A stretch of DNA of 64,000 nucleotides from Nitrospiraceae bacterium (GCA_050246315.1 JBFWWG010000012.1:54543-118542); one strand, 5' to 3'; shown: positions 7,109 through 31,649, counted from the stretch's first letter. Translations and numbers: made by a program. The notes: generated by a model from the sequence alone, not told the origin.

Positions 7109-7116
7109 TTCGAACC

Positions 7117-12499: not shown

Positions 12500-12612
12500 T
12501 TCAGCCTCAACTCGCCAGGCCGAGACCCAGACTCCAAGATGACTCGCTATCGCATTCCATGACATAAAGTTTAATAGAAGTATGATGTTATAACCTATTG
12601 ATCTAATCGATC

Positions 12613-14784
12613 TCACGCAGCTTCCTGATCTCCCTGCTGATAGCGCGAGAGCCGTGCGTAGGCTCCGTTGCTCCTGAGGAGTTCCTCGTGCGTCCCTTGC
12701 TCGGCGATCTCGCCCTTCTCGATCACGAAAATGCGTTGGGCCGATCGCACCGTGCTCAGCCGGTGCGCGACGATGATGACGGTCCGACCTTGGCAAATCC
12801 GCGCCATGTTTCGCTGGATGACGGCCTCGGATTCGTAATCGAGCGCGCTGGTCGCTTCATCGAAAATCAGGATGCGCGGATTGGCAATCAGCGCACGCGC
12901 AATGGCGATTCGTTGGCGCTGCCCGCCGGAGAGGGAGCAGCCCTGCTCGCCGACGATCGTGTCGTAGCCTTCCGGCAATTCCAGAATGAACTCATGAGCC
13001 CCGGCCAGCATCGCTGCCTGAATGACCCGCTCCATCGAGAGTCCGGGGTCCGCTTGGGCGATGTTGTCGCGTACCGACCGGTTGAACAGAAAGTTTTCTT
13101 GCAGCACCACCCCGACCTGCCGTCGCAGCCAGGCCGGATCGACCTGCGCCAGATCCACCCCGTCCACGAGGACGCGGCCCCGTTCCGGCACATAGAGACG
13201 TTGAATCAGTTTCGCAATCGTACTCTTGCCCGAACCGGATCGTCCGACGATCCCGACCACCTGACCCGGCTGCATCGCGAAGGACAGCTTGCGGAGGACT
13301 TCGCTGCCGTCGGATCGATACCGGAATGTGACCTCGTTGAAGACCACGTGGCCTTTTACGGAAGGCAACGTCGTCCTGTTTGGATTGTACGAGGGCTCGG
13401 GCCTGCTGTTGAGCAGATCGCCCAAGCGCTGCATCGACACACCGACCTGTTGAAACTCCTGCCAGAGGTTCACGATCCGGAGTAACGGCCCCGTCACCTG
13501 CCCGGACAACATGTTGAACGCGATCAACTGACCGATGCTCAAGGTCCCGTCGATCACCAGGTAGGCGCCGGCCCAGAGAATCGCGATGACCGTCAGCTTT
13601 TGGATCAGACCCGCCACCTGGCCGGCCACCGTCATCAGGCTCGTGGTCCGGAAGCTCGCGTGCACATAGTCCGCCAGTTGCCCATCCCATCGACGCTGGA
13701 GGGGCGGCTCCAATGCCAGCGCCTTGACCGTTTGAATGCCGGTCACAGCCTCGACCAGAAAGGCCTGGTTCTCGGCGCCACGCGTAAACTTTTCGTTCAG
13801 CCGCGCTCGGATGACCGGCGTGATGACCAGCGAGAGCGCCGCGTACAACGGCAACGACCCCAGCACGATCAGCGTGAGCCAGGGGCTGTAGAACCACATC
13901 ACGCCTAGAAAGACCGCCGTGAAGAGGAGATCCAAGACGACCGTGACGGCGTGGCCGGTCAGGAACTGTCGGATCTGTTCCAGTTCGCGCACGCGCGCCA
14001 CCGTATCGCCCACTCGCCGGGCTTCGAAGTACGCGAGCGGCAGCGAGAGGACATGTCGAAACAATTGCGCGCCGAGCGCCACGTCGATCCGATTGGTGGT
14101 ATGAGAGAACAAGTAGGTGCGTAGCCCTCCCAGGAGGGCATCGAAGAGCGCCAGGCCCGCCATGCCGATCGCCAACACATGGAGCGTGGTGAAGCCCTTG
14201 TGAACGAGGACCTTGTCGATGACGACTTGGGTAAATAGGGGCGTCAGCAGCGCGAAGAGTTGCAGAAACAGCGACGCGAGCAGGACTTCTCCCAGGAGCC
14301 GACGATGCCTCACCAGTGCGGGAACGAACCAGGTGAAGTCGAACGTCAGATCTTGTGGCCGTCTGTGCGCTCGCTTCGTGAACAGCAGCAATGTGCCGGA
14401 CCAGGCGGCTTCAAACGTTCGGCGGGTGAGGAGGAGAGGTCGCTCGCCCTGGGGATCTTGGATCAGGACCTTGTCGGCTTCGGCCTTGGCCAGCACGACG
14501 AACCGGCCGTCCTTCCGACGGGCCATGGCCGGCAGCGGCAGGGTCGGCAATTCGGACCAACCCACTGTCACCTGTCCGGCCTTCAACCCCAGATGCTTCG
14601 CCGCCCGGATCAGATCGCCTTCGTTGAGCGTTCTGCCGCTTTCCGCAAACTGGTGCCGAATCTGCCCGCCGTCCGCCGGCAAGTCAAAAAACCGCGCGAG
14701 GATCAGGAGACAGAGCAGGCCACTGTCTGGTTCGTGAACTGGTTCTGAACTGGATTGTTGGGATGAGTCGTCGGGCGGGCTCAT
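12613..14784 (-). CDS. hlyB: Type I secretion ABC transporter with a C39-like domain
   Basis: C39-like N-terminus (DSGLLCL), TM domain, Walker A GRSGSGKST, LSGGQRQR and FDEATSALD. Confidence 0.95.
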   Translation of the reverse strand: MSPPDDSSQQSSSEPVHEPDSGLLCLLILARFFDLPADGGQIRHQFAESGRTLNEGDLIRAAKHLGLKAGQVTVGWSELPTLPLPAMARRKDGRFVVLAKAEADKVLIQDPQGERPLLLTRRTFEAAWSGTLLLFTKRAHRRPQDLTFDFTWFVPALVRHRRLLGEVLLASLFLQLFALLTPLFTQVVIDKVLVHKGFTTLHVLAIGMAGLALFDALLGGLRTYLFSHTTNRIDVALGAQLFRHVLSLPLAYFEARRVGDTVARVRELEQIRQFLTGHAVTVVLDLLFTAVFLGVMWFYSPWLTLIVLGSLPLYAALSLVITPVIRARLNEKFTRGAENQAFLVEAVTGIQTVKALALEPPLQRRWDGQLADYVHASFRTTSLMTVAGQVAGLIQKLTVIAILWAGAYLVIDGTLSIGQLIAFNMLSGQVTGPLLRIVNLWQEFQQVGVSMQRLGDLLNSRPEPSYNPNRTTLPSVKGHVVFNEVTFRYRSDGSEVLRKLSFAMQPGQVVGIVGRSGSGKSTIAKLIQRLYVPERGRVLVDGVDLAQVDPAWLRRQVGVVLQENFLFNRSVRDNIAQADPGLSMERVIQAAMLAGAHEFILELPEGYDTIVGEQGCSLSGGQRQRIAIARALIANPRILIFDEATSALDYESEAVIQRNMARICQGRTVIIVAHRLSTVRSAQRIFVIEKGEIAEQGTHEELLRSNGAYARLSRYQQGDQEAA

Positions 14785-15041
14785 CGTCTTGGCATCGGCG
14801 GGACGGCCATCTCGTTGCCTCCTGCACACCTGGAGCAAACGGGCCTATCCTACTCACGCGCCGATGAATCGACGATTCTCCAGATGAATGGGATTCCCCC
14901 CTAATGGCACGGGGCCATACGGGACTCCACTCGGGAGGAATGAATGGACAAGGCCTGATTGGGAAGACCGGGAGAGACCGCGAGCAGGAACTCCCTGGCG
15001 GATCAAGACCGCGACCTGATAGGACACAAGACTCGTGCGGG

Positions 15042-18000
15042 CTAGGACCAACTGGCAGCCAGGATGGCCTGCACGTCCTCCGGTCGCTGAGCAACGGCCG
15101 CTTCCCACGACAGGCCTGTTTGGCTCGTGAAGCCTGCCATCGCTTGGATGAGTTGATCGACCTGGTTGTTCAACAACTGCTGGCCGTTACCTGCAACGAT
15201 GAGCTCCGTCTGATTGGACGTGCCGTCGTACCAATTGTGGATCGTGATCTGATCCGACGTGCCGTAAAGCGCAATCCGCAGGTCATCGGCTTGCCGGCTC
15301 AGCACCAGATCCAACGGATCGATGGTCGCACCGAATCGTACCGTATCCTGGCCGGAGCCTCCGTCTTCGATCAACCGATCCTGACCATCCCCACGTGCGA
15401 AGAGATAGTCGTCGTGGCCTGAGCCTCCGATCAAGAGATCGTTCCCGGTTCCACCAGCAAGCTGATCCGCCCCGCTGCCGGCCAGGAGCAGGTCATCGTC
15501 CGCGCCTCCGCTGAGTTGGTCATCGCCCGATCCACCGTCGAGCATATCGGTGCCGTCGCCTCCATCCAGTAGATCGTGGCCGCTCCCGGCAGTGAGGGCG
15601 TCGTTCCCCAACCCGCCGAGAAGCTGATCGTGGCCGCTGCCGCCGAGCAGAAGATCGTGGCCCTCGCCGCCCTCCAACCGATCCTGGCCCGATCCCCCGT
15701 CAAGCCAGTTCATTCCGGCGTTGCCGATGATGAGATTGTTGAGCGAGTTCCCATGCCCATTGATATTGCCGGTGCCGGTGAGCGTGAGGTTCTCGAGGTT
15801 GCTCCCCAGCGTCCAAGTGACGTTGGTCTGAATCGTATCGATGCCGCCTCCGGCGCTTTCAATCACCGTATCGCCCATCCCCACTACATAGGTGTCATTA
15901 CCGGTTCCGCCGGTCAAGCGGTTCCGCCCGCTGTTGCCGACCAGGAGATTGTCCAGCTCGTTGCCCGTCCCAGTGAGATCCGCCGTGCCGGCGAGGGTGA
16001 GGTTCTCCACATTGGCGCCAAGGCTGTAACTCACGAGACTCTGCACCGTATCGAGACCTTCTCCGGCCATTTCGGTGACGACATCCCCGGGATCGTCTAC
16101 GCTGTAGGTGTCGTGGCCCACCCCACCGGCCATCCGATCCGCTCCAACACCGCCGTCGAGGAGATCGTCGCCTCCACCCGATTGCATGTTGTCATTGCCG
16201 GCCAATCCCATCAGGCGATCCGTCGTGTCGGTGCCGGTGAGCGCATCGTCGTTGGCAGTCCCGACGAAGTCGAACCCGCGCGCGAGCAGGTCTTGATAGG
16301 TCAGGACCGTCCCATCGGCAAAGCGGAACGTCTCGATCGCACGCGGGCCGAACACGTCGGCGGGATCGAAGGAGGTGAGGTGAATAGCATCCCCACCTGC
16401 TCCGACCCGAATCACCAGTGACCCTAATCCGAGGCTCAGATCGGCCGGCGTGATGCCGGCTCCAAATTGGAGGCTGTTCCCCTCGCCGGGCAGCGCCTGA
16501 TCGGTAATGGTATCGACGCCATCTCCCAGATTGAACAGATACGTGTCGTCGCCGGGTCCGCCGGTCAGCGTATCGTTCCCGGTTCCGCCGGCAATCCTGT
16601 CATTCCCCGCGCCGGCGTCCACGACGTCGTTCCCGTCCAACGCCTCGATCTCATCGTCGGCGAGGCCGCCCTCCAGCAGATCGTCGCTATCGGTCGCCCG
16701 CGGTCCCAGCAGGTCCGCCACCCGCACCGTCGTCCCGTCGGCAAATGCGAGGGTCTCGACCACCAGCGAGCCGTTCAAATCGTTCGGATCGAAGTTTACC
16801 AGCCGCAGCGCATCGCCGTTGGTCCCAATCTGAATCGTCAGGAGACCGCTGGATTGAACGAGGGTCAGATCAGCCCGTGAAATTCCGGCGCCGAATTGGA
16901 TCACGTTGCCGTCGCCCGGAACGGCACGATCGTCGATCGTATCGATGCCATCGCCGGCGTTGAACAGATAGGTGTCGTGGCCTGCGCCGCCAAGCATCCG
17001 ATCATTTCCCTGCTTTCCTGCCAACACGTTGGCGGCTTGATTGCCCACCAAGACATTGTTGAGTGCATTTCCGGTCCCTGTGCTAGGCCCCTCCCCGATG
17101 AGTGTGAGGTTTTCCAGATGATCACCCAGCACATAACTCACGGCACTGGCCACGGTATCGATACCCTCACCCGCCGCTTCAACGATGGTATCGGGCAGGC
17201 CCGTATCGGAGGCCAGGCCCATCACGGCATAGGTGTCGTTGCCAGTTCCTCCGATGAGCAGATCATTTACCCCGTCATCCGACATGCTTTCGGCGAGCGC
17301 CTCGTTGATCGAAAGGGAGGGGCGCAGGCTCCCGCCCGCCAACGTATCGTCCCCCGCTCCACCGGACAACACGTCGGCATTCCGGCTGCCGATCAGGAGG
17401 TTATCGAGGGCATTGCCCGTACCAGTCATCGCCGGCCCATCGCCCGGCGGCAGGCCCCAGGTCGTCAGTTGAAGATTCTCGACATGATCGGGCAGCTCAT
17501 AGGAAACGGAACTCCGGACCGTATCGATCCCGCCATCCGTCTGCTCCGCAATGATTTCGCCGGAATTGTAGATCACATAGGTGTCGTCCCCGGCGCCGCC
17601 AACCAAGACATCATCAGCCAGGATAGAGGACGGGTTGCTGACCGGGAGAATCGCTTCCTGCCCGGACATGAATCGGACGGTACCTCCGATCGGCGCCAAG
17701 ATGTCGTCGCCTGCTCCACCGATCAGCATGTCGCTCTGCGACTCGTCGAACGCCACGGACGACGCCCGGACATATCCTCCAACGAGGACATCGTTGCCGG
17801 CGCCGCCGTCGATCGTGCTGGCTCCGCCGTTCTCCACGAGAACATTGTCGAGTTCGTTCCCGATGAGCTGGAAGTTCGACGAGGCCGCCCGTAGCGCCTC
17901 CACATGAGTGGGCAAGGTGTAGACGGACGGCACATCCCCGGTCACCGTATCGAATCCCTCTCCGGGCTGCTCCACGACTGTGTCGTCGCCGACCGAATCG

Positions 18001-21000
18001 ATCCGATAGACATCGTCGCCGGTACCGCCGATCAACGTGTCGGCGCCAACAGCACTGACAAACCGATCCGGAACTGCCGTGCCGATTAGAGTCTCGTCCC
18101 CACTCGTACCGACAATAGACGCCGGCGCTTCACGGCGTTGCGTCAGATGTCTCCAATCGGTTGTGTCGAACGGTGAGAAGGCCGCTTTCCAGAGTCCAAC
18201 CACCGTGGTCTTCTCCCATGTCGTGCCATCCTGAAATCGGACGATCGGGGGCGCTGCCTGATCGAAATATCCGACGACCCGCAACTTGTCCCCCGTCGAG
18301 CCGATCGCCAAAACCAGATTGTTGGGAATCGCCAAGATCTCATTGGAGTTGGACAGTACCCGAATATCGCCGGGAGCGATGCCGTCGCCCAGTTGAATCG
18401 TTTCACTGCCGGTGAAATCGCTGATCTGATCCAGGCCCGATCCGATGCCGAAACGATAGGTGTCGTTTCCAGAGCCACCATCCAGGAGATCGTTCCCGCC
18501 GCCGCCGTCCATCAGATTCGCGCCGCTATTACCGATGAGGATGTTGTCGAGTCCATTCCCGAGACCCGCAATATCCGCGATTCCGGTCAGGACCAGACGC
18601 TCCAGATGATCGGATAATTGAAAAGAGGCGCTGCTCTCGACTGTATCGTAACCCTCGGCGATCCGTTCAATCACCACGTCGCCTGAATGATCCACGACGT
18701 ACAGATCATCGCCGGCGCCGCCGATCAGGGTGTCCATGCCGGCCCCGCCGTCGAGACGATTGACGCCACGATTGCCCACCAGCGTATTATCGAGGCCATT
18801 GCCGAAACCGTCCACCGTCGGAGACTCCACACCCTGGATCTCGAGCAGGCTGAGATCGGAATCTCTGAGCACCAGATTCTCCAGGTTGGCTCCCAAGCGA
18901 TAGGTCCTCGCGCTTTCGACCGTATCGATTCCCTGCCCTGCCTCTTCGACAATCTGCTCGAACCCTTTTACGATGTACGTGTCGTTCCCCGCTCTTCCGG
19001 CCAGGATATTGACCGATCCGTTTCCGCTCAACACATTATCCAGCTCATTGCCGGTGCCGTTGATCGATCCCGTTCCACACAGCACGAGGTTTTCGATGTG
19101 GGCGCCTAATGTCGCCGTCGCCGTCGTTTGGACTGTGTCCGTGCCAGCGCCCGGTAACTCAACAACCGTATCCCCCTCCCCAATTAGATAGGTGTCGTTG
19201 CCTTGACCGCCTGCCAGAACGTTGGCCGCAGCGTTTCCAATCAAGACGTTGTCGAGATCATTGCCGGTCCCATCGACAGCGCCCGTCCCGGTCAAGGTCA
19301 ACCGCTCAAGATTGGGGGCCAGCGCATGGCTCACGGCGCTGAACACCGAATCGATGCCCTCGCCGGGCAGTTCCACGATCGTGTCCCCCGGAGCGTCAAC
19401 GAGATACTGGTCGTCGCCGGTCCCGCCGATGAGCCGATCGTCGCCGGTTCCACCATCCAGCACATCGTCGCCGTCGAGCCCGCGGAGTTCGTCATTGCCG
19501 CTGAGCCCGGTCAATATATCCACTCCGGTCCCTCCGACGACCACATCATCGGCAACAGTCCCGGCCAGTCTGGTTTGCGTCGCGGCTTCCAAATCGGCGG
19601 TATCCCAAACGGTGCCGTCGGCAAAGTGGACCTGTTCGATCTGGAAGGTCGAGGCGAGGAAAAACTCAGATAGCGTCAGGCGATCGGTTGTCCCATTGAT
19701 GCTCAGGACAAGATCTCGCCCCTGGCGCCTCACGGCGACGTCACTGGGCAGCACATCCGTCCCGAAATGAATCGCATCCGCCATGCCGGCTCGATCGAGC
19801 ACCCGATCCCACCCATCGCCCCGATTGAAGACATAGACATCGTCGCCGTCTTTACCTTGCAACACGTCATTCTCAGCTCCTCCCACCATCCGATCGGCGC
19901 CGTTCGTGCCGGCAAGCGTATCGGCGCCGGGGGTGCCCGCCACCTCAAACCCTCGCGCGATAAGCTGGTTGTATGAGAGCACCGTGCCGTCGCTGAATCG
20001 AAAAGTCTCAACCGCATGCAGGCCGAACACATCGTCAGGATTGAAGCCGGAGAGTCGAAGCTCATCGCCGCCCGTCCCGACGCGAATCGTCAAGATCGAG
20101 TCGTTTCGGAGAAACCCCAAGCGGAGCATGCCAGGTGTGATGCCGGGACCGAACACCATTTCATTTCCTTCACCGGCGGTCGTAGAATCGGTGATCGTGT
20201 CGATACCGTCCCCAAGGTTGAAGACGTACTGATCGTGGCCGGCCATTCCAACCAGTTGATCATCTCCCGCGCCACCCTGAAGCCGATCGGGCAAGGCCGT
20301 GCCGAATAGGTTGTCGCTGCCGGACGTGCCGACCAGCGTGAACCCACGCGCTACCAACTCGGCGTAGGTCAGGGTCGTACCGTCGGCAAATTGGAACGTC
20401 TCGATATCGTGAGCGCCCGTGGGATTCGTGCGGCGCGCATTGGCCAACACGATGTCCTCCCCCGGCACGCCGGTTTGCACTGTCAAATTGCTCCCGTCCA
20501 CGCCAAGCCTGACGGACTGCGACGAAATCCCCGGACCGAACCGCAAGACGTTGCCGGCGCCGGCCACCGCCGTATCGGCAATCACATCCCGCCCGTCTCC
20601 CTGCATGTGGAGATAGGTATCGTGGCCAGGCCCGCCATCGAGAAAATCCTCTCCCCGCCCGCCGATGAGCAGATCATCTCCGTCTTCACCACGCAGGCTG
20701 TCATTCCCCTCGCCACCCTCAAGCCGATCGTGGCCCAGGCCGCCGTAGAGGGTGTCATTCCCGGATTCCGCTCGTAGGATGTCGTCGCCGGCCAGTCCGC
20801 TGAGCTGATCATGACCGTCGCCGGCCTGCATCTCATCCGCCAGATCGCTCCCAATCATCTCCTCGTTCCCAGGCCCGCCGAGGGTCAGAACACCTTTGGT
20901 TTGCAGTTGGGCAAGTAGGGCGGTCCAGGCGATGGTCGTCCCATCGGCAAAGACCGCTTGGTCAAAGGCGTTCCCGTTATGCCGAATTCGATCATCCGGC

Positions 21001-24000
21001 GTCCCCACTATCAGAAAGGATCCCTGTCGATCTTGTCCCAACCGGAGCAAATCGATCGTGATGCCGCTGCCAAACTCAATGACATTGCCACCGGAGACAT
21101 CAAAGACTTGATCCTCGCCATCGCCGAGGTTGAACCGATACCGATCGGCTCCATCCCCGCCAAGGACGGCATCATTGCCGGCCCCCCCTTCGAGCCGATC
21201 GGCGCCGGCCCCACCGTCTAACGTATCGGCCCCCTCGTCGCCGAACAATTGATCCTCGTCCTCGTCGCCATACAACGTGTCATTTCCCGTTCCACCGGTG
21301 AGCACGTCTCGATCGAGACCGCCGACCAACGTATCCTGTCCGTCCTCGCCAAAGAGTGTATCGTTCCCTTCTTGACCGAAGAGCCGGTCGTTGCCCGTAT
21401 CGCCCACGAGCAGGTCGTCGCCGAGGTTGCCCTGCAGCTCGTCGTCCCCGGCATTTCCAAAGAGTCGGTCGTTGCCATCTTGGCCGAAGAGCAGATCATT
21501 GCCGGTCCCGCCGTCCAACTCATCCGTACCGATCCCTCCATCCAATTGATCGTCGCCGTCCTCGCCGAACAGCCAATCATCGCCCGCCTCGCCGAACAGC
21601 AGATCGGCCCCCTCCTCTCCCACTAAGGCATCGGCCCCGTCCCCGCCGGCCAGTTGATCGTTGCCGGTCCCGCCGTAGAGGCTGTCATCGCCAGCGTCGC
21701 CGAACAACCGATCCTGCTCGCTGCCGCCGTCCAGCAGATCGTGACCGCCGCCCCCTTGCAATTCATCGCTCCCCGCGCCCCCATCGAGCGTGTCGTCAAA
21801 GCCCTGCGTAAGATTGTTGAGATAATCCCCCACCAAGAAATCATCGCCGTCACCTCCGAACAGCGCATCCTCGCCACCCCCGCCGATGAGTTCATCGTCC
21901 CCGAGCCCGCCGTCCAGCCAATCCTTGCCTTCTTGGATCACGCCGAGCTGAAGATCGTCTCCGGCCAGCACATCGACACCGGCTCCGCCAAGCAGCACAT
22001 CGCCGCCCGCATCGCCTTGGAGATAGTCGTCTCCCTCACCGCCGTCGAGATAGTCCGCACCACCCGTGACGCTATCAAAGGCCATACCACTTTGCGGCGT
22101 CACCACGCCCGGGTAGGCCAGTTCGAAGTTCGGCGCCGTAGCTGGCGCCTGATCGCCATACAGCCGGTCATTCTCGGTGCCTCCCACCAACACATCCTCC
22201 CCGAGCATCCCCATCAACCAGTCCGCGCCGGCTCCGCCGTCCAGATAATCGTTGCCTGTCGTGGTCGCTCCCAGCGCCAGAGATTCCCCGGAGAGTAGAT
22301 CGTTGCCGTCCTGCCCAAACAGCACATCGTCCCCGGAACCGCCATCGAGTCCGTCATCCCCGAGCCCGCCGGACAACGCATCCTGGCCGGTGCCTCCCTT
22401 GAGCAAATCAATGTCGTCCCCACCGTCCAGGACATCGTCGCCGCCGAACCCGCCCAGAACGAGATCCCGTCCACTCCCCCCGAACACCCGATCATGGCCG
22501 TTGCCCCCGCGCAGCTCATCGTGGCCGTCGCCCCCGAAGATCTGATGATGGAAGAGCATGCTCCCGCTTTCGAAGTTGAGAATGTCGTTGCCGCCATATC
22601 CGTAGGCTTCATGGTTTGCGGCAGCGGTGAAGATGGGCTGATTGTCCGTCGCGTCGCCGTCGTAGCGGATGGTCGCTTCACCGTTGTTGTAGTTGATAGT
22701 CGGGCCGGCGCTATCGACGAGGTTGCCTACATCGGCCAGCTTGATCCCCAACGCGCCATTGGCGAAATCGAAGCTCTCGATGATAAGCGCATTATTGATC
22801 ACGAGGTTCGCACCGGACTTCACGAAGGTAACCTGGCCGTCGGGACTCCGGTACGTATCGATAGGATCACCCTGCCGTCGAATCCCCCCGACCAGCGTCT
22901 GCCCATCGAAGACAATCGTGCCGATTCTGTCGGCATCGACGATGCGATCCAGTCCTTGGCCCGAATGATAGAAATAGGTATCGAGGCCGGTGCCGCCGTC
23001 GAGCCGATCATCGCCGAGTCCGCCATTGAGCCGGTCGTTCTCGGCTTCGCCAAACAGTTGATCGTCGCCCTGCTGGCCCAAGAGAATATCGTTCTCGCTG
23101 CCACCGTAGAGTTCGTCACTCCCCGCGTTGCCTTCGAGATAATCTTGCCCACCTTGCCCGATCAGAAGATCGTCGCCGGCTCCACCATAGAGATGATCCC
23201 CGCCGGCATGGCCCGTGAGATCGCGGTTGTCCTGGGCATCGCCGAAGATCACCTCGTTCGCAGAGGCGACGCTACCCAGTTCCAATCCGGTCTGTTTGTC
23301 CACGTAATGCGTGTCGGTTGGAACCGTGTCGCCATCGTTGATATTCACCGCCAATCGCTTGGCCAGTAGCTCCGCTCGATCGCTCAAGGCATTCAAGGTC
23401 CAGGCGCCTTGCCCCGTCACCGTATCGTAGAGGTCCAGCGAGCCGTCTTGACTGTGCATGGCCTGATAGTCCACGCCGCGCACAACGAACGGATTGAGTT
23501 CTTTGAGTGCATATCGATACGCCAGGCCATCGGCAGTTGAGGCTTTGGCTTGGCTATACACCATACTATTGGAAACTCCGGCAAGACTGTCGAGACGATA
23601 GGAACTGACTGACGGCAGGTTGTCTCGGAAGGCGAAGAGATTGGTGTAGTAGGCGTCGCGATCACCCACTGGTGTTGTGGTTTGATTAGGTCCCAGGACC
23701 ACCTTCCGGAGGGCGTCGAGGCCATTTTCTAGGCTATTGACCGCTGTTGCGGAGGCAGCATTGAGGATGGTTGTCACACTGGAGACAGACAGGCTCGGGT
23801 CGATGCGTGCGAACACATCGTACAAAGCCAACGCATCAACAAGAGACCGGGCGCTATGATTGGTCAGCGGGTTCAGACTCGTCTCGATAAATGCATGTTC
23901 TACCTCTCCGAGTTGGCGGCCCTGACTGGAGACAAAAGAGGGGCCCTCCGCAATGAGGTTCGTAATCAAATGGTTGTCTATGGAAGCACCGGCCACGCCA

Positions 24001-24521
24001 AGAGAACCAAACGGATTGACCAGCACCCCACCGAACCCGGGAGCATTGTAGGTATAGGTATGGGATACGTTCAGTGGATGGTCGACGGTAAAGGCTTGAG
24101 CAAGATAACCACCCAGCGAATGTCCGGTGATAGTGAGATTGTCCGTGGGTAACAGCTTGCCCTCGGTGGTGAGTTGCAAATAGAAATTCTTCAACGAGAC
24201 ATATTGATCGGCTAGACCAAATAGGCCGATCTGGAGATCTGAAAGGAGGAGGTCTACGACGTCGTTCGTCCCGCGGATTGCCAGAACCTTTTCGTTCGTG
24301 CCGATCCGCTGAAACAACGTCGCCGCAAATCCCGTCGTAACGTCGTTGAAGGTGCTGACAATCGAGTATCGATTTGCAAACTCGGCTGCCTCAAGCGAGG
24401 CAAAGCCCCGCTCCTTCAACTCTTGGATATAGTCCGGCAAAGGCATTCCCACAAACAGCTCGGCATAGGCCGCATCCGCAAGTTGGGCCTGATCGTAATA
24501 CGTACGGATTAAACCGCTCAT
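15042..24521 (-). CDS. 3159-aa RTX exoprotein with an N-terminal lipase (alpha/beta-hydrolase) domain
   Basis: AIRGT, TGHSLGG nucleophile elbow and YNAPG in the first ~170 aa. Many GGxGxDxLx repeats follow. C-terminal QLIQAMAGF...LAASWS resembles a T1SS signal. Adjacent to hlyB/hlyD. Confidence 0.93.
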   Translation of the reverse strand: MSGLIRTYYDQAQLADAAYAELFVGMPLPDYIQELKERGFASLEAAEFANRYSIVSTFNDVTTGFAATLFQRIGTNEKVLAIRGTNDVVDLLLSDLQIGLFGLADQYVSLKNFYLQLTTEGKLLPTDNLTITGHSLGGYLAQAFTVDHPLNVSHTYTYNAPGFGGVLVNPFGSLGVAGASIDNHLITNLIAEGPSFVSSQGRQLGEVEHAFIETSLNPLTNHSARSLVDALALYDVFARIDPSLSVSSVTTILNAASATAVNSLENGLDALRKVVLGPNQTTTPVGDRDAYYTNLFAFRDNLPSVSSYRLDSLAGVSNSMVYSQAKASTADGLAYRYALKELNPFVVRGVDYQAMHSQDGSLDLYDTVTGQGAWTLNALSDRAELLAKRLAVNINDGDTVPTDTHYVDKQTGLELGSVASANEVIFGDAQDNRDLTGHAGGDHLYGGAGDDLLIGQGGQDYLEGNAGSDELYGGSENDILLGQQGDDQLFGEAENDRLNGGLGDDRLDGGTGLDTYFYHSGQGLDRIVDADRIGTIVFDGQTLVGGIRRQGDPIDTYRSPDGQVTFVKSGANLVINNALIIESFDFANGALGIKLADVGNLVDSAGPTINYNNGEATIRYDGDATDNQPIFTAAANHEAYGYGGNDILNFESGSMLFHHQIFGGDGHDELRGGNGHDRVFGGSGRDLVLGGFGGDDVLDGGDDIDLLKGGTGQDALSGGLGDDGLDGGSGDDVLFGQDGNDLLSGESLALGATTTGNDYLDGGAGADWLMGMLGEDVLVGGTENDRLYGDQAPATAPNFELAYPGVVTPQSGMAFDSVTGGADYLDGGEGDDYLQGDAGGDVLLGGAGVDVLAGDDLQLGVIQEGKDWLDGGLGDDELIGGGGEDALFGGDGDDFLVGDYLNNLTQGFDDTLDGGAGSDELQGGGGHDLLDGGSEQDRLFGDAGDDSLYGGTGNDQLAGGDGADALVGEEGADLLFGEAGDDWLFGEDGDDQLDGGIGTDELDGGTGNDLLFGQDGNDRLFGNAGDDELQGNLGDDLLVGDTGNDRLFGQEGNDTLFGEDGQDTLVGGLDRDVLTGGTGNDTLYGDEDEDQLFGDEGADTLDGGAGADRLEGGAGNDAVLGGDGADRYRFNLGDGEDQVFDVSGGNVIEFGSGITIDLLRLGQDRQGSFLIVGTPDDRIRHNGNAFDQAVFADGTTIAWTALLAQLQTKGVLTLGGPGNEEMIGSDLADEMQAGDGHDQLSGLAGDDILRAESGNDTLYGGLGHDRLEGGEGNDSLRGEDGDDLLIGGRGEDFLDGGPGHDTYLHMQGDGRDVIADTAVAGAGNVLRFGPGISSQSVRLGVDGSNLTVQTGVPGEDIVLANARRTNPTGAHDIETFQFADGTTLTYAELVARGFTLVGTSGSDNLFGTALPDRLQGGAGDDQLVGMAGHDQYVFNLGDGIDTITDSTTAGEGNEMVFGPGITPGMLRLGFLRNDSILTIRVGTGGDELRLSGFNPDDVFGLHAVETFRFSDGTVLSYNQLIARGFEVAGTPGADTLAGTNGADRMVGGAENDVLQGKDGDDVYVFNRGDGWDRVLDRAGMADAIHFGTDVLPSDVAVRRQGRDLVLSINGTTDRLTLSEFFLASTFQIEQVHFADGTVWDTADLEAATQTRLAGTVADDVVVGGTGVDILTGLSGNDELRGLDGDDVLDGGTGDDRLIGGTGDDQYLVDAPGDTIVELPGEGIDSVFSAVSHALAPNLERLTLTGTGAVDGTGNDLDNVLIGNAAANVLAGGQGNDTYLIGEGDTVVELPGAGTDTVQTTATATLGAHIENLVLCGTGSINGTGNELDNVLSGNGSVNILAGRAGNDTYIVKGFEQIVEEAGQGIDTVESARTYRLGANLENLVLRDSDLSLLEIQGVESPTVDGFGNGLDNTLVGNRGVNRLDGGAGMDTLIGGAGDDLYVVDHSGDVVIERIAEGYDTVESSASFQLSDHLERLVLTGIADIAGLGNGLDNILIGNSGANLMDGGGGNDLLDGGSGNDTYRFGIGSGLDQISDFTGSETIQLGDGIAPGDIRVLSNSNEILAIPNNLVLAIGSTGDKLRVVGYFDQAAPPIVRFQDGTTWEKTTVVGLWKAAFSPFDTTDWRHLTQRREAPASIVGTSGDETLIGTAVPDRFVSAVGADTLIGGTGDDVYRIDSVGDDTVVEQPGEGFDTVTGDVPSVYTLPTHVEALRAASSNFQLIGNELDNVLVENGGASTIDGGAGNDVLVGGYVRASSVAFDESQSDMLIGGAGDDILAPIGGTVRFMSGQEAILPVSNPSSILADDVLVGGAGDDTYVIYNSGEIIAEQTDGGIDTVRSSVSYELPDHVENLQLTTWGLPPGDGPAMTGTGNALDNLLIGSRNADVLSGGAGDDTLAGGSLRPSLSINEALAESMSDDGVNDLLIGGTGNDTYAVMGLASDTGLPDTIVEAAGEGIDTVASAVSYVLGDHLENLTLIGEGPSTGTGNALNNVLVGNQAANVLAGKQGNDRMLGGAGHDTYLFNAGDGIDTIDDRAVPGDGNVIQFGAGISRADLTLVQSSGLLTIQIGTNGDALRLVNFDPNDLNGSLVVETLAFADGTTVRVADLLGPRATDSDDLLEGGLADDEIEALDGNDVVDAGAGNDRIAGGTGNDTLTGGPGDDTYLFNLGDGVDTITDQALPGEGNSLQFGAGITPADLSLGLGSLVIRVGAGGDAIHLTSFDPADVFGPRAIETFRFADGTVLTYQDLLARGFDFVGTANDDALTGTDTTDRLMGLAGNDNMQSGGGDDLLDGGVGADRMAGGVGHDTYSVDDPGDVVTEMAGEGLDTVQSLVSYSLGANVENLTLAGTADLTGTGNELDNLLVGNSGRNRLTGGTGNDTYVVGMGDTVIESAGGGIDTIQTNVTWTLGSNLENLTLTGTGNINGHGNSLNNLIIGNAGMNWLDGGSGQDRLEGGEGHDLLLGGSGHDQLLGGLGNDALTAGSGHDLLDGGDGTDMLDGGSGDDQLSGGADDDLLLAGSGADQLAGGTGNDLLIGGSGHDDYLFARGDGQDRLIEDGGSGQDTVRFGATIDPLDLVLSRQADDLRIALYGTSDQITIHNWYDGTSNQTELIVAGNGQQLLNNQVDQLIQAMAGFTSQTGLSWEAAVAQRPEDVQAILAASWS

Positions 24522-24533
24522 TCTAACTTCCTC

Positions 24534-25064
24534 CTATTGCTCGCTTGCATTTTGGCGAACGACCTGACGCCACAGGGTGCCGTAGAGATCACGACCAAAT
24601 TGCGGACAAGGATCCGGGGCAGCTTCAATCAAGATCGTCGTATGCAACCAACCACCGAAGTAAGAGAATCCTGTTGCCATACCCAAATGTTCTCCGTTTT
24701 CTTTATCAATGAGGACGCCTTGATGTTTTGTCATATGAAACACTCTCGAAAAGGCGCGGTCCATTGTCGTTTGCCAGTCGAGCCGTTCGAGTAGCAATTT
24801 CTTCTCATCCAGTCGTCCGTCAGGCATGAAATATGTCTTGTCCACCTCAATAGTCTTGAAGACTTCTACCCCTCCCTCTTTCTGGCAAATGTATTGATGG
24901 TACAGCCGTCCAGGAATGATGTCCCACGTGGGGATCAATACAAAGATCGCGATGGTTGCGTATTTTGCAAGCTTGCTCTGCGTACGCACTTCCATTCGCT
25001 GGGCCATATACCGCGCAAGCCCGACATAAAGCCCGCAGAGGAGAAGAACCGCTAAGCCAAACAT
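24534..25064 (-). CDS. Membrane-anchored putative immunity protein, cassette A (cognate to the full-length RTX lipase)
   Basis: Two N-terminal hydrophobic helices, then WDIIPGRLYHQYICQKEGGVEVFKTIEV and a distal Cys. Ends 12 nt before the RTX ATG. Immunity role inferred from position. Confidence 0.75.
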   Translation of the reverse strand: MFGLAVLLLCGLYVGLARYMAQRMEVRTQSKLAKYATIAIFVLIPTWDIIPGRLYHQYICQKEGGVEVFKTIEVDKTYFMPDGRLDEKKLLLERLDWQTTMDRAFSRVFHMTKHQGVLIDKENGEHLGMATGFSYFGGWLHTTILIEAAPDPCPQFGRDLYGTLWRQVVRQNASEQ

Positions 25065-25154
25065 CCACGCCGCCTTTCGCTTGTGGTGATTGCCAAGTCG
25101 CCGTTGCCTAAGGTCATCACCCTTACCGGCATACCTATGGGCGTTCAGAGAGGG

Positions 25155-25805
25155 CGTTCCGGACATCTTCCCAATGATTTCATCGCGAAGCGTCCGTGTC
25201 CCAAGTACCGCGGCCTGACCCCACCCGCAAGCCGCGGCATCCTAGGTGATTGCCCGATTGAAATGCGATTCTTCAGAGGAGGAGTGGGCTCCCCTACTGG
25301 TAGGTGCCCTGCGCGTCGCGAAGGACGACTCGCATCGAACCGCCGGGCATTGCTGATTGAGACTGATTGTCTCGGGATCGGGAGGACTTGTCGAGGATTT
25401 CCGCCGAGATGGACGGCGCGCACCACGACCATCACGAAAATGGGACCATTGCTACTTTGAATCGTGATCAGCCTCCAATCACTTCGCCAACTCGAACGGC
25501 CTGTCCAGATACGGCCCCCACCCAGGGTTGTGCGACAGTCTTTTGCCTGCCAAGACCAACTTGGACGAGCCGAAGAACGCGCCTGCAATTGAGAAGAAGC
25601 ACCGGCGGTCCTCGCGGAGCATCCCAGAAGTCCGTTCGTGGTGAGCCTGTTGAACCGTGAAGGGAACTGCTTCAGCCCGGGCGCTCTTCGAGCGGCTCAG
25701 GACGAATGGATTATCACAGGAACTTAAAGGACACTACTACGGTGGCTGAGTCTGAAGGGCGGCCAGCCGGACGGGCTCGACAGCCGAGTATCAAGTCAAG
25801 CAACG
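25155..25805 (-). repeat. Repeated leader, copy A (651 bp)
   Basis: Near-identical to 28571-29221 (offset 3416) and similar to 27108-27680. Confidence 0.95.
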
Positions 25806-26086
25806 CCCCCTAAGCAGGTATCGAAGATCAGCGTCGCCGAGAACCCTGTCGCATCGTTGGCGTGATGATCGAGGATTTGGTAGCGCTGGATGAATTGCTG
25901 CGCTTGAAGAGCGGTGAAACGAGTCTTACCCATGAACTGGTCAAGGGGAACTACACGGCGGTCATTATTGCCGTCTATAAGGACTTGTTGAAGTGTACTA
26001 CCCTGCACCACAAACTGATCAAGATAAGACTCCGCTGCCGTTTGTTGAAGAGCAAAATCGAGCCAAGTCTTGATGCTAGTTGCCAT
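25796..26086 (-). pseudogene. Truncated RTX/lipase 5' end, cassette B
   Basis: MATSIKTWLDFALQQTAAESYL...RYQILDHHANDATGFSATLIFDT then CLGGVA*. Shares the ND.(T)TGF.ATL motif with the intact RTX. The stop lies inside leader A. Confidence 0.8.
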
Positions 26087-27047
26087 CTTTCTGCTCCTTC
26101 ACGTCGAATGGAAAAGGTTTCAGAACTTTTTGTATAAATTTGAAAGTATGGTTGGTTCCTCGATTTGGACAACTAGGCCCTGTCAACCACCAGACACCCG
26201 TCATGTTGTTGCGAACTAAGCCGGTTCGCATATACCCACGGCGGACGGCCAGTACCTCGTTCGTCTTGAGATCAAGAACGATGAGCTCACCGCCAGCAAT
26301 TCCCAATGTCCTCTCATGTGGCCGATTGATTCCCCGCCACGTGTAACCATATCGGCTCTTGATCTCTGACACGGTCGCTTCTGCAACAACATAAGGAACA
26401 AACACTCCTTGCTCGTTTATTGCCGTCTGATATTTTCTTCCCGGGTGTGCGTTCTCGTCTCGGAAGTACCGTCGATATCGTTCAGCCTCACCAGATGATC
26501 CTGATAAGGGCACCTCCAAGAACTGATACTTGCCGGTAGCTGGTTGAACATATGTATCCTGCACAAGATAGGATTCATCTGTTGTGTGGCCATAGGGGTC
26601 TTCTAGAGCATACAGATGACTCAGTTCATCATCCGTGGCTTCCTTCCTCGGCCGCATCATGTACAGCCCTTCCACATTCTCTACGGTCTTGTAGATAAAC
26701 TCCCCGGCTTCGGCCTTGCAGAGATGTTCGAAATACTGCTCGGGTGTCATGCCCGGCTTGTACCCGCTGTCTGCCGGCACTGGATTGGGAATCTTGAGTG
26801 AGTGCGCGAACCGACCTTCTTCGGTCGCCAGCGGATCGGCGGGTTGAAGCTTCGTGATGTCGCACCGGTGGTTGGCGGGTTTGATCTTATGCGTGGCACA
26901 GTATTCAGCTTCTCGTTTGATCGCTTTCCGAAATCGCTCGCCGGGTGTCTCGTCCTGCGACAGCAACCCGGCGATGGCATACGAGGCACTCAACAGCCCA
27001 ATCACGAAGACCATCATGCTGCGGCCTCCCTTCATTTCGATGCTCAT
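26076..27047 (-). CDS. Exported putative immunity protein of a second type, cassette B
   Basis: SD TAAGGAGG and a signal peptide; LCKAEAGEFIYKTVENVEG, SRYGYTW, W....SCP. The stop overlaps the stub start. The C..E.G...YKT.E motif echoes the A/C proteins. Confidence 0.75.
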   Translation of the reverse strand: MSIEMKGGRSMMVFVIGLLSASYAIAGLLSQDETPGERFRKAIKREAEYCATHKIKPANHRCDITKLQPADPLATEEGRFAHSLKIPNPVPADSGYKPGMTPEQYFEHLCKAEAGEFIYKTVENVEGLYMMRPRKEATDDELSHLYALEDPYGHTTDESYLVQDTYVQPATGKYQFLEVPLSGSSGEAERYRRYFRDENAHPGRKYQTAINEQGVFVPYVVAEATVSEIKSRYGYTWRGINRPHERTLGIAGGELIVLDLKTNEVLAVRRGYMRTGLVRNNMTGVWWLTGPSCPNRGTNHTFKFIQKVLKPFPFDVKEQKDGN

Positions 27048-27107
27048 CCCATCCTCCTTAGCTCCATGGCCTTCTCCACCCGGAGCCGCAGGCGGACTCA
27101 CATCCGC

Positions 27108-27680
27108 AGCCGCGGCATCCTAGGTGCTTGCCCGATTGAAATGCGATTCTTCAGAGGAGGAGTGGGCTCCCCTACTGGTAGGTGCCCTGCGCGTCGCGAA
27201 GGACCGTTATCCTTCAGCCGCCGAACATTGTTGATTGAGGCTGATTGTCTCGGGATCAGAAGGACTTGTCGAGGAGTTCCGCCGAGATGGACGGCGCGCA
27301 CCACGACCATCACGAAAATGGGACCATTGCTACTTTGAATCGTGATCAGGCTCCATTCACTTCGCCAACTCGAACGGCCTGTCCAGATACGGCCCCCACC
27401 CAGGGTTGTGCGACAGTCTTTTGCCTGCCAAGACCAACTTGGACGAGCCGAAGAACGCGCCTGCAATTGAGAAGAAGCAACGGCGGTCCTCGCGGAGCAT
27501 GCCAGAAGTCCGTTCGTGGTGAGCCTGTCGAACCATGAACGGAACTCCTTGAGCTCGGGCGCTCTTCGAGCGGCTCAGGACGAATGGATTATCACAGGAA
27601 CTTAGAGGACAGTACTGCGGTGGCTGAGTCTGAACGGCCAGCCGGACGGGCTCGACAGCCGAGTATCCAGTCAAGCAACG
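27108..27680 (-). repeat. Repeated leader, copy B (573 bp, more diverged)
   Basis: Colinear with 25230-25805, with scattered substitutions. Confidence 0.95.
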
Positions 27681-27684
27681 ACCC

Positions 27685-27939
27685 TCAAGCAACGTCATGA
27701 CCCTCAAGCAACATCCTGCCGTTCCGTTGGAACAACGTCGCGGCAAATCCCGTCGTAACGTCGTTGAAGGTGCTGACAATCGAGTATCGATTTGCAAACT
27801 CGGTTGCCTCAAGCGAGGTAAAGCCCCTGTCTGTTAAGGCTCGGACATAAATATCTTCAAGCATACCCACGGCCAAATTGGCATATGCCGCATCGGACAA
27901 TTCGGCGTGCTCATAATACGTGCGGATTGCCTCGTTCAT
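27685..27939 (-). pseudogene. Truncated RTX/lipase 5' end, cassette C
   Basis: MNEAIRTYYEHAELSDAAY...NRYSIVSTFNDVTTGFAATLFQR then NGRMLLEGHDVA*. Bases 27731-27827 match 24313-24409 of the intact gene with 3 mismatches. Confidence 0.9.
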
Positions 27940-27940
27940 T

Positions 27941-28480
27941 TCAGGTACCTCCAGAATTCGTTTCTGTCTTGGGACGAAAGACCTCCTGCCAAATCTTCTC
28001 ATAGGGATCAGGGCTGAACTGCGGACAAGGATCTGGCGCAGCCTCACTTAGGATTGTCGTATGGAGCCAGCCGCCGAAGTAGGAGAACTGTGTCGCTGTC
28101 CCCAATTTATCTCCGGTTTGCCTATCAAGAATGGAAAGTTGATGCTTCGTGATACGGAATACTTTCGAAAATCCTCGAACTATGCTTGTTTGCCTATCGA
28201 AGCGCTTTTGAAGTTCTTTTTCATCCAGTCGTCCGTCAGGCATGAAATACGTCTTGTCCACCTCAATAGTCTTGAAGACTTCTACCCCTCCCTCTTTCTG
28301 GCAAATGTATTGATGGTACAGCCGTCCAGGAATGATGTCCCACGTGGGGATCAATACAAACATCGCGATGGTTGCGTATTTGCCAAGCTTGCTCTGCGTA
28401 CGCACTTCCATTCGCTGGGCCATATACCGCGCAAGCCCGACATAAAGCCCGCAGAGGAGAAGAACCGCTAAGCCAAACAT
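27941..28480 (-). CDS. Putative immunity protein, cassette C (paralog of 24534-25064)
   Basis: N-terminal half nearly identical to the cassette A protein; C-terminal half diverged. Confidence 0.8.
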   Translation of the reverse strand: MFGLAVLLLCGLYVGLARYMAQRMEVRTQSKLGKYATIAMFVLIPTWDIIPGRLYHQYICQKEGGVEVFKTIEVDKTYFMPDGRLDEKELQKRFDRQTSIVRGFSKVFRITKHQLSILDRQTGDKLGTATQFSYFGGWLHTTILSEAAPDPCPQFSPDPYEKIWQEVFRPKTETNSGGT

Positions 28481-28570
28481 CCACGCCGCCTTTCGCTTGT
28501 GGTGCTAGCCAAGTTGTAATTACCTAATCTCATTGCTCCTGGTTACATACCTATGGACTCTTCGAGATGA

Positions 28571-29221
28571 CGTTCCGGACATCTTCCCAATGATTTCATC
28601 GCGAAGCGTCCGTGTCCCAAGTACCGCGGCCTGACCCCACCCGCAAGCCGCGGCATTCGAGGTGCTTGCCCGATTGAAATGCGATTCTTCAGAGGAGGAG
28701 TGGGCTCCCCTACTGGTAGGTGCCCTGCGCGTCGCGAAGGACGACTCGCATCGAACCGCCGGGCATTGCTGATTGAGACTGATTGTCTCGGGATCGGGAG
28801 GACTTGTCGAGGATTTCCGCCGAGATGGACGGCGCGCACCACGACCATCACGAAAATGGGACCATTGCTACTTTGAATCGTGATCAGCCTCCAATCACTT
28901 CGCCAACTCGAACGGCCTGTCCAGATACGGCCCCCACCCAGGGTTGTGCGACAGTCTTTTGCCTGCCAAGACCAACTTGGACGAGCCGAAGAACGCGCCT
29001 GCAATTGAGAAGAAGCACCGGCGGTCCTCGCGGAGCATCCCAGAAGTCCGTTCGTGGTGAGCCTGTTGAACCGTGAAGGGAACTGCTTCAGCCCGGGCGC
29101 TCTTCGAGCGGCTCAGGACGAATGGATTATCACAGGAACTTAAAGGACACTACTACGGTGGCTGAGTCTGAAGGGCGGCCAGCCGGACGGGCTCGACAGC
29201 CGAGCATCCAGTCAAGCAACG
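28571..29221 (-). repeat. Repeated leader, copy C (651 bp)
   Basis: Near-identical to copy A. Confidence 0.95.
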
Positions 29222-29396
29222 ACCACAAGGCCTCGACTCCACCGGCTTGGGCAGGGTATCAGCCAACCGCGACATCCGGGGTCACTGGATTGGCCTGATC
29301 AGCCTGTGAATCAGAAAGGAAAGTGCGGGCTGGACGCAGATTGCCTACGCTGCAAGCTGGCGAGAGCCGACAGCGCCGCTCGCTCACGTGATCCCG

Positions 29397-29828
29397 TTAT
29401 GGAGCGGCGGGCAGGATCGTTCTGGCGAGGGCGGTGGCGGTGAAGTCGCTTCCGATCGAGCTCTTGACGTTGTCAGGGGGCGCTTCGATCAACGCTTCGA
29501 CCTGCATGACCATCCCGTGGCGTGCGGGTTGGGTCAGGCTTTCATCCTCCTGGCATCGCACCAGATAGACCACTCTGATCGTTCCCGTGCTGTCTTCCAG
29601 ATCGAAGTCCTGTCCACAGAGCGATTGGACCGCGACATTCCTGCCCGACCTCGTCCCGATCACATGGACTTTCCCTTGTATGCGGACCACCTTTCGGTGA
29701 AAGCCTGTCGGATTGGACAGGATCTTCTCAATCGGGATGATCTGGTCTGCTGCGAACGCGGGCACGCCTCCAACGCAAACCGTCAAGACACCGATGCCGA
29801 AGACGGTTTGGACAAACCCTGTTCTCAT
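29397..29828 (-). CDS. Exported hypothetical protein, OB-fold-like
   Basis: Signal peptide ending AFA; IEKILSNP..FHRKVVRIQGKV and FDLEDSTGTIRV resemble small OB-fold proteins. Confidence 0.65.
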   Translation of the reverse strand: MRTGFVQTVFGIGVLTVCVGGVPAFAADQIIPIEKILSNPTGFHRKVVRIQGKVHVIGTRSGRNVAVQSLCGQDFDLEDSTGTIRVVYLVRCQEDESLTQPARHGMVMQVEALIEAPPDNVKSSIGSDFTATALARTILPAAP

Positions 29829-29968
29829 CGGTCTACTCCCTTCTGATTGTTGCCCCATCCAGACTGTACGACAGGCCGCGTCAATGCCCAACTAATTCTG
29901 CGCTTTGGTCTCGTTGACAAGCCGGTTGCTCCCACCTAAGATTCGCCCCGTTCATCTATCCGACTGTT

Positions 29969-31453: not shown

Positions 31454-31649
31454 TTAGCCCGCATTATTCATGACGGTTCGTTGCGTTCCACCCGTTGCAG
31501 TGAAAGCGCAACGGGTACCCGGCAGTCGCCAAGCGAGACGGGCAAGCGCAGCCGCGAAAGACTGAGCGGCGAGCGCGCCCGCCGTCAGGCTCTGTCGCAG
31601 CGGCGAATCCGCGATTGCAGCAGGAGTGTTCATAAATAATGCAGCTTAG
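31454..31649. mobile_element. MITE-like element, family 2
   Basis: Ends TAGCCCGCATTATTCATGA and TCATAAATAATGCAGCTTAG; homologous to 47222-47438 and 49954-50168. Confidence 0.8.

Follow-up and report, generated by a model that had tools for sequence, protein, structure and literature searches.

The DNA analyzed here is a 64,000-nucleotide (nt) stretch of a Nitrospiraceae bacterium genome (GCA_050246315.1, JBFWWG010000012.1:54543-118542), hereafter called the window. From 29240 to 24521 its minus strand carries three tandem units, each composed of a leader of ~620 nt, a gene encoding an exported or membrane protein (the partner) and the 5′ end of an RTX toxin gene. In the order of transcription these are units C, B and A, and unit A alone reaches the full RTX gene, which is followed by genes for an ABC exporter and a HlyD-type protein. 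We propose, with a probability of roughly 0.6, that the product of the locus is a polymorphic toxin leaving the cell through a type I secretion system (T1SS), that its N-terminal head is exchanged together with the upstream partner gene, that the partner is the cognate immunity protein, and that displaced units are kept as orphans. Exchange of heads and partners between strains is shown by comparison of related genomes; the immunity function of the partner is what we infer from sequence.

Exchange of the toxin head together with the partner gene

All three other genomes of the genus Nitrospira carry the locus beside the same flanking gene (a homologue of 29397-29891), with one cassette each; homologues of this gene, showing 71-96% identity, lie directly upstream of the cassette in loci L040, L041 and L042. 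In the closed genome G003 the single partner is of B type (57% identity), as is the toxin start (55%), which runs into a full-length RTX gene; the exporter of G003 is 90% identical to that of the window. Genome G002 has a single B-type partner (71% identity) and a B-type start, and G001 a single A-like cassette on a contig that ends inside the toxin gene. Between the toxins of the window (toxin A) and of G002, identity is 20-50% across residues 1-355 and rises to 88-100% from about residue 360 on. Because of this breakpoint near residue 355-360, the exchange unit is taken to be the partner gene plus the first ~355 codons of the toxin gene. It is bounded upstream by the core of the leader and downstream by the RTX body, just after AYRYALxELNPF..QDGSLDLYD. 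The locus therefore combines a conserved trafficking part with a variable head, and head types differ at the same site within the genus. Homology searches of the window's own genome revealed no second copy of any part of the exchange unit.

The initial annotation of the window, made from its sequence alone, had placed the variable part of the toxin at the N-terminus, travelling with the upstream partner, and the G002 breakpoint and the different cassette types at one site agree with this. Two of its predictions also came true: the number and type of cassettes vary among relatives, and a full-length B-type RTX gene behind a B-type partner was found in L040 and L041.

The pairing of partner and toxin types was counted for 43 partner loci, spread over the window and 29 fetched loci. 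Partner type equalled toxin type in all 34 typed units (19 A-A, 15 B-B, none mixed), and the A-type partner lay directly upstream of the A-type toxin in 19/19 of them. The nine partner loci without a typed toxin comprise four at contig ends, one with a stub below the cut-off, one placed before another cassette and three unexplained cases. The partner-then-toxin order occurs in Nitrospirota, Gamma- and Betaproteobacteria and a metagenome-assembled genome of a Cyclobacteriaceae bacterium, and the A-type pair in these and in Gallionellaceae.

In structure prediction the head of toxin A (residues 1-355) comes out as a class-3 lipase or phospholipase. Its AlphaFold2 model (predicted local distance difference test, pLDDT, 83.9; predicted template modelling score 0.85) matched class-3 lipases in a Foldseek search, namely Yarrowia Lip2 (3o0d, E 1.3e-6) and the Rhizopus, Rhizomucor and Thermomyces enzymes. 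A chain of a type VI secretion system (T6SS) lipase effector from a toxin/immunity complex (9cys_A) followed at rank 18 (E 8.3e-5, TM-score ~0.34-0.43), the fungal lipases being the better fold matches. Ser135 (in the GHSLGG motif), Glu213, His222 and Asp229 are invariant in 12 diverse sequences, and Pfam searches with the head gave lipase and hydrolase matches below threshold only. The RTX repeats (GGxGxD) were recognized as HemolysinCabind in the first 600 amino acids (aa; E 3.1e-22) and in the last 499 aa (E 1.8e-32). Where the initial annotation had named hlyB and hlyD, directly beside the RTX gene, Pfam identified an ABC exporter with a C39 domain and a HlyD-family protein. The two open reading frames (ORFs) as listed in Table 1 overlap by 184 nt (12613-12796), and the true start of the HlyD-family gene probably lies further downstream.

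Partner A has 59 homologues, nearly all metagenomic, and partner B has 1570, mostly from Nitrospira. None has a Pfam family, the protein atlas clusters of partner B are unnamed, and the partners and toxin stubs of the window gave sub-threshold Pfam matches only. The partner A model (AlphaFold2, pLDDT 88.6) shows two N-terminal membrane helices arranged as a hairpin and then a domain of ~110 aa with a helix and a beta sheet. In our own reading, based on the positively charged loop between the two helices, this C-terminal domain would lie outside the cytoplasm. Foldseek returned no match to the model in the PDB at E <= 0.001, and a wider fold search matched only the N-terminal helical hairpin (residues 1-47). 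The partner A family is further characterized by an invariant IPTWDIIPG-like motif and two conserved cysteines. Partner B has an N-terminal signal or anchor and four cysteines; the consensus of its family starts with a lipobox-like LLxxGCA, and many B-type partners have a lipobox. Partner B is distantly related to both A and C, and the A and B families have a homologous C-terminal core of 74 columns (hhalign probability 94.6%, E 6.6e-8) as well as a common YxxxLCxxExG..KT.E motif. Prediction of a complex between head A (1-355) and partner A (42-176) gave a score of 0.00 in both runs, which were made without controls and count neither for nor against binding.

Table 1. Features of the cassette array and the genes beside it, ordered by position in the window.
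Feature	Position	Strand	Remarks
HlyD-family membrane-fusion protein of the type I secretion system	11144..12796	-	Pfam HlyD_3 E 2.4e-20, HlyD_D23
ABC exporter, HlyB type, with N-terminal C39 peptidase-like domain	12613..14838	-	Pfam ABC_membrane 6.4e-61, ABC_tran, Peptidase_C39 1e-18
RTX gene, 3159 aa, GHSLGG	15042-24521	-	
Conserved RTX body, residues 356-3159: nonapeptide repeats, HCBP_related domains, C-terminal end	15042..23456	-	Pfam HemolysinCabind, HCBP_related; >=90% identical to the G002 protein from about residue 360
Variable N-terminal module of toxin A, residues 1-355: predicted class-3 lipase fold, then helical part ending in AYRYALxELNPF	23457..24521	-	
Partner A, 176 aa from conserved start (ORF readable back to 25166)	24534..25064	-	
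Leader A, non-coding repeat	25065..25817	-	REP-like element and conserved core with promoter-like site 25366-25394
Stub B, 96 codons: first ~90 of a B-type toxin and 6 from the junction	25796..26086	-	
Partner B, ORF of 341 aa; likely start ATG 27047, giving 323 aa	26076..27101	-	
Leader B, 93-94% identical to leader A	27102..27717	-	promoter-like site 27244-27272
Stub C, 84 codons, ATG 27939 to stop 27685: first ~74 of an A-type toxin and 10 from the junction	27685..27939	-	
Partner C, 179 aa, intact A-type partner	27941..28480	-	79% identical to partner A
Leader C, 99-100% identical to leader A	28481..29240	-	promoter-like site 28782-28810
Upstream flanking gene, weak OB-fold Pfam match	29397..29891	-	marks the common chromosomal site in all 4 genomes of the genus

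The stop of partner B overlaps the start of stub B. At ~660 nt from the HlyD-family gene, on its downstream side and likewise on the minus strand, a gene (9463-10479) encodes a WYL/WCX-domain protein, possibly a transcription regulator. The remaining neighbours are ordinary: a TldD/PmbA metallopeptidase pair (32459-35617, minus), a uracil-DNA glycosylase family gene (29969-30625, plus) and a dienelactone hydrolase gene (31646-32347, minus).

Leaders, junctions and integrity of the array

Two repeat families mark the units, one of 300 nt at 25230-25529, 27108-27407 and 28646-28945 (94-99% identity) and one of 57 nt at 25760-25816, 27635-27691 and 29176-29232. These repeats are real and far beyond chance. 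In a three-way alignment ~620 nt are common to all three units, with leaders 93-100% identical, and units A and C are 100% identical over 25770-25171. Repeats, ORFs and the contigs described below bear out the initial annotation in its division of the array into three units of leader, partner and RTX 5′ end, of which A alone continues into the 3159-aa RTX protein. Its statements that each unit has its own leader and that unit B carries a different partner and toxin start held as well: stub B is 34% identical to toxin A over 44 residues, and stub C 70% identical over toxin residues 2-75.

The leader contains two distinct parts. The first is an element of ~120 nt with an inverted repeat, resembling repetitive extragenic palindromic (REP) sequences, at leader positions 80-198 (25619-25737, with copies near 27494-27612 and 29035-29153). 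Its own genome holds 15 further full-length (~120-nt) copies on 13 contigs, 73-83% identical, and three partial matches; in G002 it stands twice in tandem ahead of the single cassette. The REP-like element folds no better than shuffled sequences (z = -0.13). The second part is a core at ~25209-25414 (copies at 27087-27292 and 28625-28830), which shows 78-97% nucleotide identity across the genus. The proteins encoded beside it are merely 37-72% identical, so that the non-coding core is the better conserved. All three leaders of the window contain a sigma-70-like site, TCGACA-17-GACAAT, inside a perfectly conserved stretch of the core. We read the core as a putative promoter and 5′ untranslated region that may also offer homology for recombination.

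Other roles of the leader were considered. Rfam gave no credible match in 23500-30500, with two snoRNA-type chance matches below threshold. Folding of the core alignment (five sequences, three of them near-identical) yielded seven pairs with double changes and a positive covariation term, a signal too thin to make the core convincing as a structured RNA element. A 147-aa ORF inside the leader had sub-threshold Pfam matches only and belongs to no family found there, and the pattern of conservation in the leader is not codon-like. Neither leader nor core had a blastn match in 18 + 10 loci from genomes outside the genus; because the leader is not conserved there, a general recombination site was ruled out. 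An integron-like mechanism was rejected too. What repeats between the units is a leader of 620 nt that has a promoter-like site of its own and is too long for attC; no recombinase or mobile-element gene was seen adjoining the array, and a Pfam scan of seven flanking window ORFs, covering nearby ORFs only, found no recombinase family.

A tandem array with long repeats could be an artefact of assembly, in which, for instance, variants from several strains were joined up across the repeated leader. In favour of such an origin, the leader is a near-identical 620-nt repeat beyond the span of short reads, the genome is in 30 contigs, and no single contig or long read spans the whole array among the records examined. 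The 5-kb stretch is, however, present (>=0.88 of its words) in 20 public runs from six studies of wastewater, sludge, landfill, aquatic and bioreactor metagenomes; one of the runs may be the source sample. Contigs were checked in four runs from four studies. The B-to-A junction is crossed by difference-free contigs of 1389 nt (25763-27151) or 881 nt (25763-26643) in 4/4 runs, and the C-to-B junction by a zero-difference contig of 135 nt (27638-27772) in at least one of the four, among the matches listed. Within each run the word depth of the unique parts of A, B and C is equal (e.g. 49.8/47.5/53.2 and 18.3/16.8/16.8). Contig depth is patchy or very high in parts of the leaders, since the REP-like element also occurs at other loci and in other organisms. 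Comparable arrays are also found in many other assemblies, as well as in the gammaproteobacterial chromosome L028, which is closed. Misassembly is unlikely on these observations, to the point that we give it hardly any weight.

Units A and C form a mosaic. Their leaders are 100% identical and partner codons 1-95 are 95-100% identical, while partner codons 96 to the end and toxin codons 1-43 fall to 55-72% (24392-24810 versus 27810-28226); the next 60 nt are 98% identical and then homology breaks off. Between partners C and A the ratio of nonsynonymous to synonymous substitution rates (dN/dS) is 0.24 over codons 1-95; over the remaining codons, which lie in the divergent patch with its saturated dS (~1.8), it is 0.16. 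For stub C against the start of toxin A it is 0.43. Because dN/dS stays at 0.16-0.24 even where dS is saturated, partner C is interpreted as a distinct working allele under purifying selection and not as a decaying copy. The patch itself has the appearance of a foreign allele of the partner's outer domain and the first head helices, set inside a freshly duplicated or converted frame. The C-terminal half of the partner and toxin codons 1-43 may form the specificity interface, in which case the first helices of the head would touch the partner.

The two stubs end before the catalytic Ser135. Stub B shares 55-56% identity with the N-termini of the two full-length toxins of B type, those in L040 and L041, and its homology to the G002 gene ends at ~25818; that of stub C ends at ~27717. 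On the toxin side the breaks follow the equivalents of residues 74 (C) and 90 (B), 1-2 codons apart in the alignment. The joins on the leader side differ: the B-to-A join shares 5 nt (GATAC) with the native upstream flank, and the C-to-B join has a short duplicated filler containing GTTGCTTGA. Judging from these sequences, both junctions were taken as illegitimate joins.

Related arrays and the fate of displaced units

B-type partners were found in 82/301 Nitrospiraceae genomes searched and in 14/39 genera (the 82 include the unpublished genome G009). Similar arrays are present in ten loci: L018, L043, L044, L045, L046, L047, L048, L049 and L050 from other Nitrospiraceae, and the gammaproteobacterial L028. 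L050 combines B-type and A-type units, as the window does. At some of the junctions a leader-like spacer is present, and at others the toxin remnant lies directly against the next partner gene. Counting these arrays and the window together, 14/15 orphan partner ORFs are whole, the exception being the frameshifted first partner of L049; the initial annotation's description of spare partner genes stacked upstream thus extends to other genomes. The toxin remnants are cut at very different lengths. The shorter ones measure 49, 65-75, 84, 96, 107, 156, 187 and 235 aa, and the longer ones ~551, ~556, ~590 (frameshifted, L018), 723, 796 (with an internal stop, L028), 819 and 824 aa. With remnants elsewhere ranging from 49 to ~824 aa, a fixed truncation site was ruled out as a general rule; it had been considered in view of the closeness of the two stub breaks of the window (1-2 codons) and of a gammaproteobacterial stub that ends ~15 residues later. 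The suggestion that stubs serve as donors for replacing the RTX 5′ end does not fit the window, in which they stop at codons 84 and 96. Only the long remnants found elsewhere (~530-824 aa, reaching the conserved body) could donate a toxin domain.

Two loci extend the range of cassette types. In L049 a third type stands behind two orphan B-type partners: a lipoprotein-like partner of 349 aa (LGAC lipobox; 5498-6547) ahead of a 2441-aa RTX gene (6516-13841), the end of the partner overlapping the start of the RTX gene. Its lipase head differs (GQSLGG), and the window RTX protein's C-terminal end is conserved in this 2441-aa protein. The last unit of L028 pairs a multi-pass membrane partner with a hydrophobic head that is rich in Gly and Ala and has no lipase motif; homology to toxin A sets in again at residues 236-348. 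A search with the junction region (residues 236-420) recovered 882 protein clusters at E <= 0.001. Among the best 150 of these most have the lipase head from residue 1, and at least five have a different, unannotated N-terminus or almost none.

Two further features of L028 were recorded. Each of its units opens with an ORF of ~99 aa, probably a coiled coil, before the partner gene (9591-9890, 12141-12434 and 15752-16051), for which searches gave no family match and no Nitrospira counterpart. Directly after its first toxin stub, two genes are inserted at 11084-11792, one for an antitoxin of Phd/YefM type and one for a toxin with a weak resemblance to PemK.

Under the proposed reading the partner would face the periplasm, as a membrane hairpin, by means of a signal peptide or, in relatives, as a lipoprotein, and would block lipase delivered by sister or rival cells. 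On arrival of a new module the old partner gene and the old toxin start would be pushed upstream and not lost. On entry, the module could be joined by homologous crossover within the RTX body and, on its upstream side, by a join that is either illegitimate or leader-based, a route that matches the known concept of homology-facilitated illegitimate recombination. A cell that gave up the old immunity would fall victim to its kin, and recombinants keeping the old partner would survive; we propose that this is why partners are whole and toxins are cut anywhere. Orphan units C and B, each with its own promoter-like leader, could still produce their partners and protect against older toxin types, the stubs being dead ends.

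Neutral debris is a different explanation of the same arrays: tandem duplication and illegitimate recombination would have left units B and C, which are not maintained and will decay. The identity of leaders A and C and of the 5′ halves of their partners does point to very recent duplication or conversion, and the junctions display short microhomology and small duplications only. The stubs have no catalytic serine, one orphan partner is frameshifted (L049), and three relatives of the same genus manage with a single cassette. Against this, at least 10 more loci, belonging to different genera and to another phylum, show such arrays independently, with partners whole and toxins cut variously; each orphan in the window keeps a conserved, promoter-bearing core; and the same three-unit array is found in all 20 runs of the six studies. 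We regard debris as an improbable account of the array.

A second explanation concerns the partner alone, which could be a dedicated accessory factor of the head (a folding helper, an activator or a membrane tether), with the upstream units as leftovers of exchange. Tight adjacency and co-variation are equally expected of a specific helper, which would vary with the head because it has to fit it. A helper without its toxin should decay, yet nearly all orphan partners are intact beside cut toxins (14/15), and partner C appears to be under purifying selection. Moreover, a helper facing the periplasm would have little point when the substrate is exported in one step by type I secretion. This explanation seems unlikely to us. 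It is kept alive because a single protein can have both roles: the Tli protein of Enterobacter cloacae is reported both to block and to activate its T6SS lipase, so the roles need not exclude each other (10.1101/2023.03.28.534661, PMC10294624), and a chain of that toxin/immunity complex is the 9cys_A found among the fold matches of the head.

Several observations weigh against the proposed toxin/immunity reading. The near-coincident stub breaks, despite differing junctions, are not predicted by a model of random displacement. Leaders A and C are 100% identical, so that duplication or gene conversion, both very recent, may account for at least part of the array in place of serial acquisition; the intact orphan partner genes could be merely young. 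Window partner B does not have the lipobox cysteine of its family, and the partner fold matched nothing known, which leaves it with no structural tie to known lipase immunity proteins. Finally, type I secretion moves its substrate from the cytoplasm to the outside in one step, bypassing the periplasm, and the reading offers no explanation of how the head of a 3159-aa protein would be placed in the periplasm of a target.

More broadly, the data are compatible with a widespread class of T1SS polymorphic toxins, to which we would give even odds. Its members would be giant RTX proteins in which an N-terminal head of ~230-500 residues is swapped together with a periplasm-facing immunity gene, with the junction after AYRYALxELNPF and an archive of immunity genes upstream. 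At least three lipase subtypes and non-lipase heads that look membrane-active would belong to it, distributed over Nitrospirota, Gamma-/Betaproteobacteria and Bacteroidota. The numbers given above (82/301 Nitrospiraceae genomes, 1570 partner B homologues and 882 junction clusters) indicate a common system. If this class exists, nitrifiers in wastewater and sludge communities would have in type I secretion a means of warfare between strains. Should the partners be immunity proteins, the key nitrite oxidizers of wastewater plants would be fighting one another with secreted lipases, their arrays would record past toxin types, and the question arises how a giant type I-secreted protein puts a lipase into the envelope of a rival.

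Comparison with known toxin/immunity systems

Polymorphic toxin/immunity systems with arrays of orphan modules are textbook knowledge for type V, VI and VII secretion systems. In contact-dependent inhibition (CDI; CdiA-CT/CdiI) and Rhs systems the toxin is C-terminal, and orphan modules downstream keep a toxin fragment and an intact immunity gene. The window resembles them in combining a conserved delivery part with a variable toxin across a conserved motif, in the cognate gene at the toxin end and in the displaced orphans. It differs in that the whole arrangement is mirrored, with an N-terminal head and with the partner and spare units upstream, as a C-terminal type I secretion signal would require.

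The bacteria-killing type IV effectors of Xanthomonadales (X-Tfe/X-Tfi) have a variable N-terminal toxin, a conserved C-terminal signal and an immunity gene that is usually upstream and encodes a periplasmic lipoprotein. The locus described here is like them in this layout and differs in the secretion system and the signal; we know of no tandem orphan stubs in X-Tfe/X-Tfi loci. With T6SS lipases and their immunity proteins (Tle/Tli) it shares an alpha/beta-hydrolase lipase head of GxSxG type and an adjacent exported partner, but delivery would be by type I secretion, with the head built into a giant RTX protein, and at the sequence level no Tle or Tli family was matched.

The C-terminal toxin with downstream immunity genes and spare cassettes, as defined by Zhang et al. 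2012, was not found in the window. The passages of that work that deal with RTX treat type I secretion solely as a route for large RTX toxins and not as a polymorphic toxin class (PMC3482391). In literature outside subscription journals we found no description of T1SS RTX proteins whose N-terminal toxin modules can be exchanged and which have orphan cassettes upstream.

The nearest known analogue appears to be TslA/TilA of the Staphylococcus aureus type VII system. According to the passages on this locus in PMC10730906, TslA has an N-terminal phospholipase and a C-terminal targeting domain, the gene of its immunity lipoprotein lies directly upstream, and a variable number of further TilA homologues upstream is interpreted as protection from variant toxins. 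Both systems have an N-terminal lipase domain that is polymorphic between strains, an adjacent upstream immunity or partner gene, and extra, non-identical homologues of it further upstream. The mirror-image design postulated in the initial annotation is therefore seen in the window but is not new in principle, TslA/TilA having the same layout. The differences are also clear. TslA/TilA belongs to a Gram-positive type VII system, its toxin having a helical, LXG-like C-terminus and its immunity proteins being DUF576 lipoproteins, whereas the window encodes a T1SS substrate with an RTX body of 2800 aa, its C-terminus consists of RTX and HCBP_related domains, and no partner has a Pfam family above threshold. 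Truncated toxin 5′ ends stand between the spare partners here, a feature not mentioned for TslA in those passages (PMC10730906). Polymorphic toxin/immunity systems are thus known as such, and what appears to be new in this locus is the type I secretion route, the mirrored layout on that route and the unannotated partner families.

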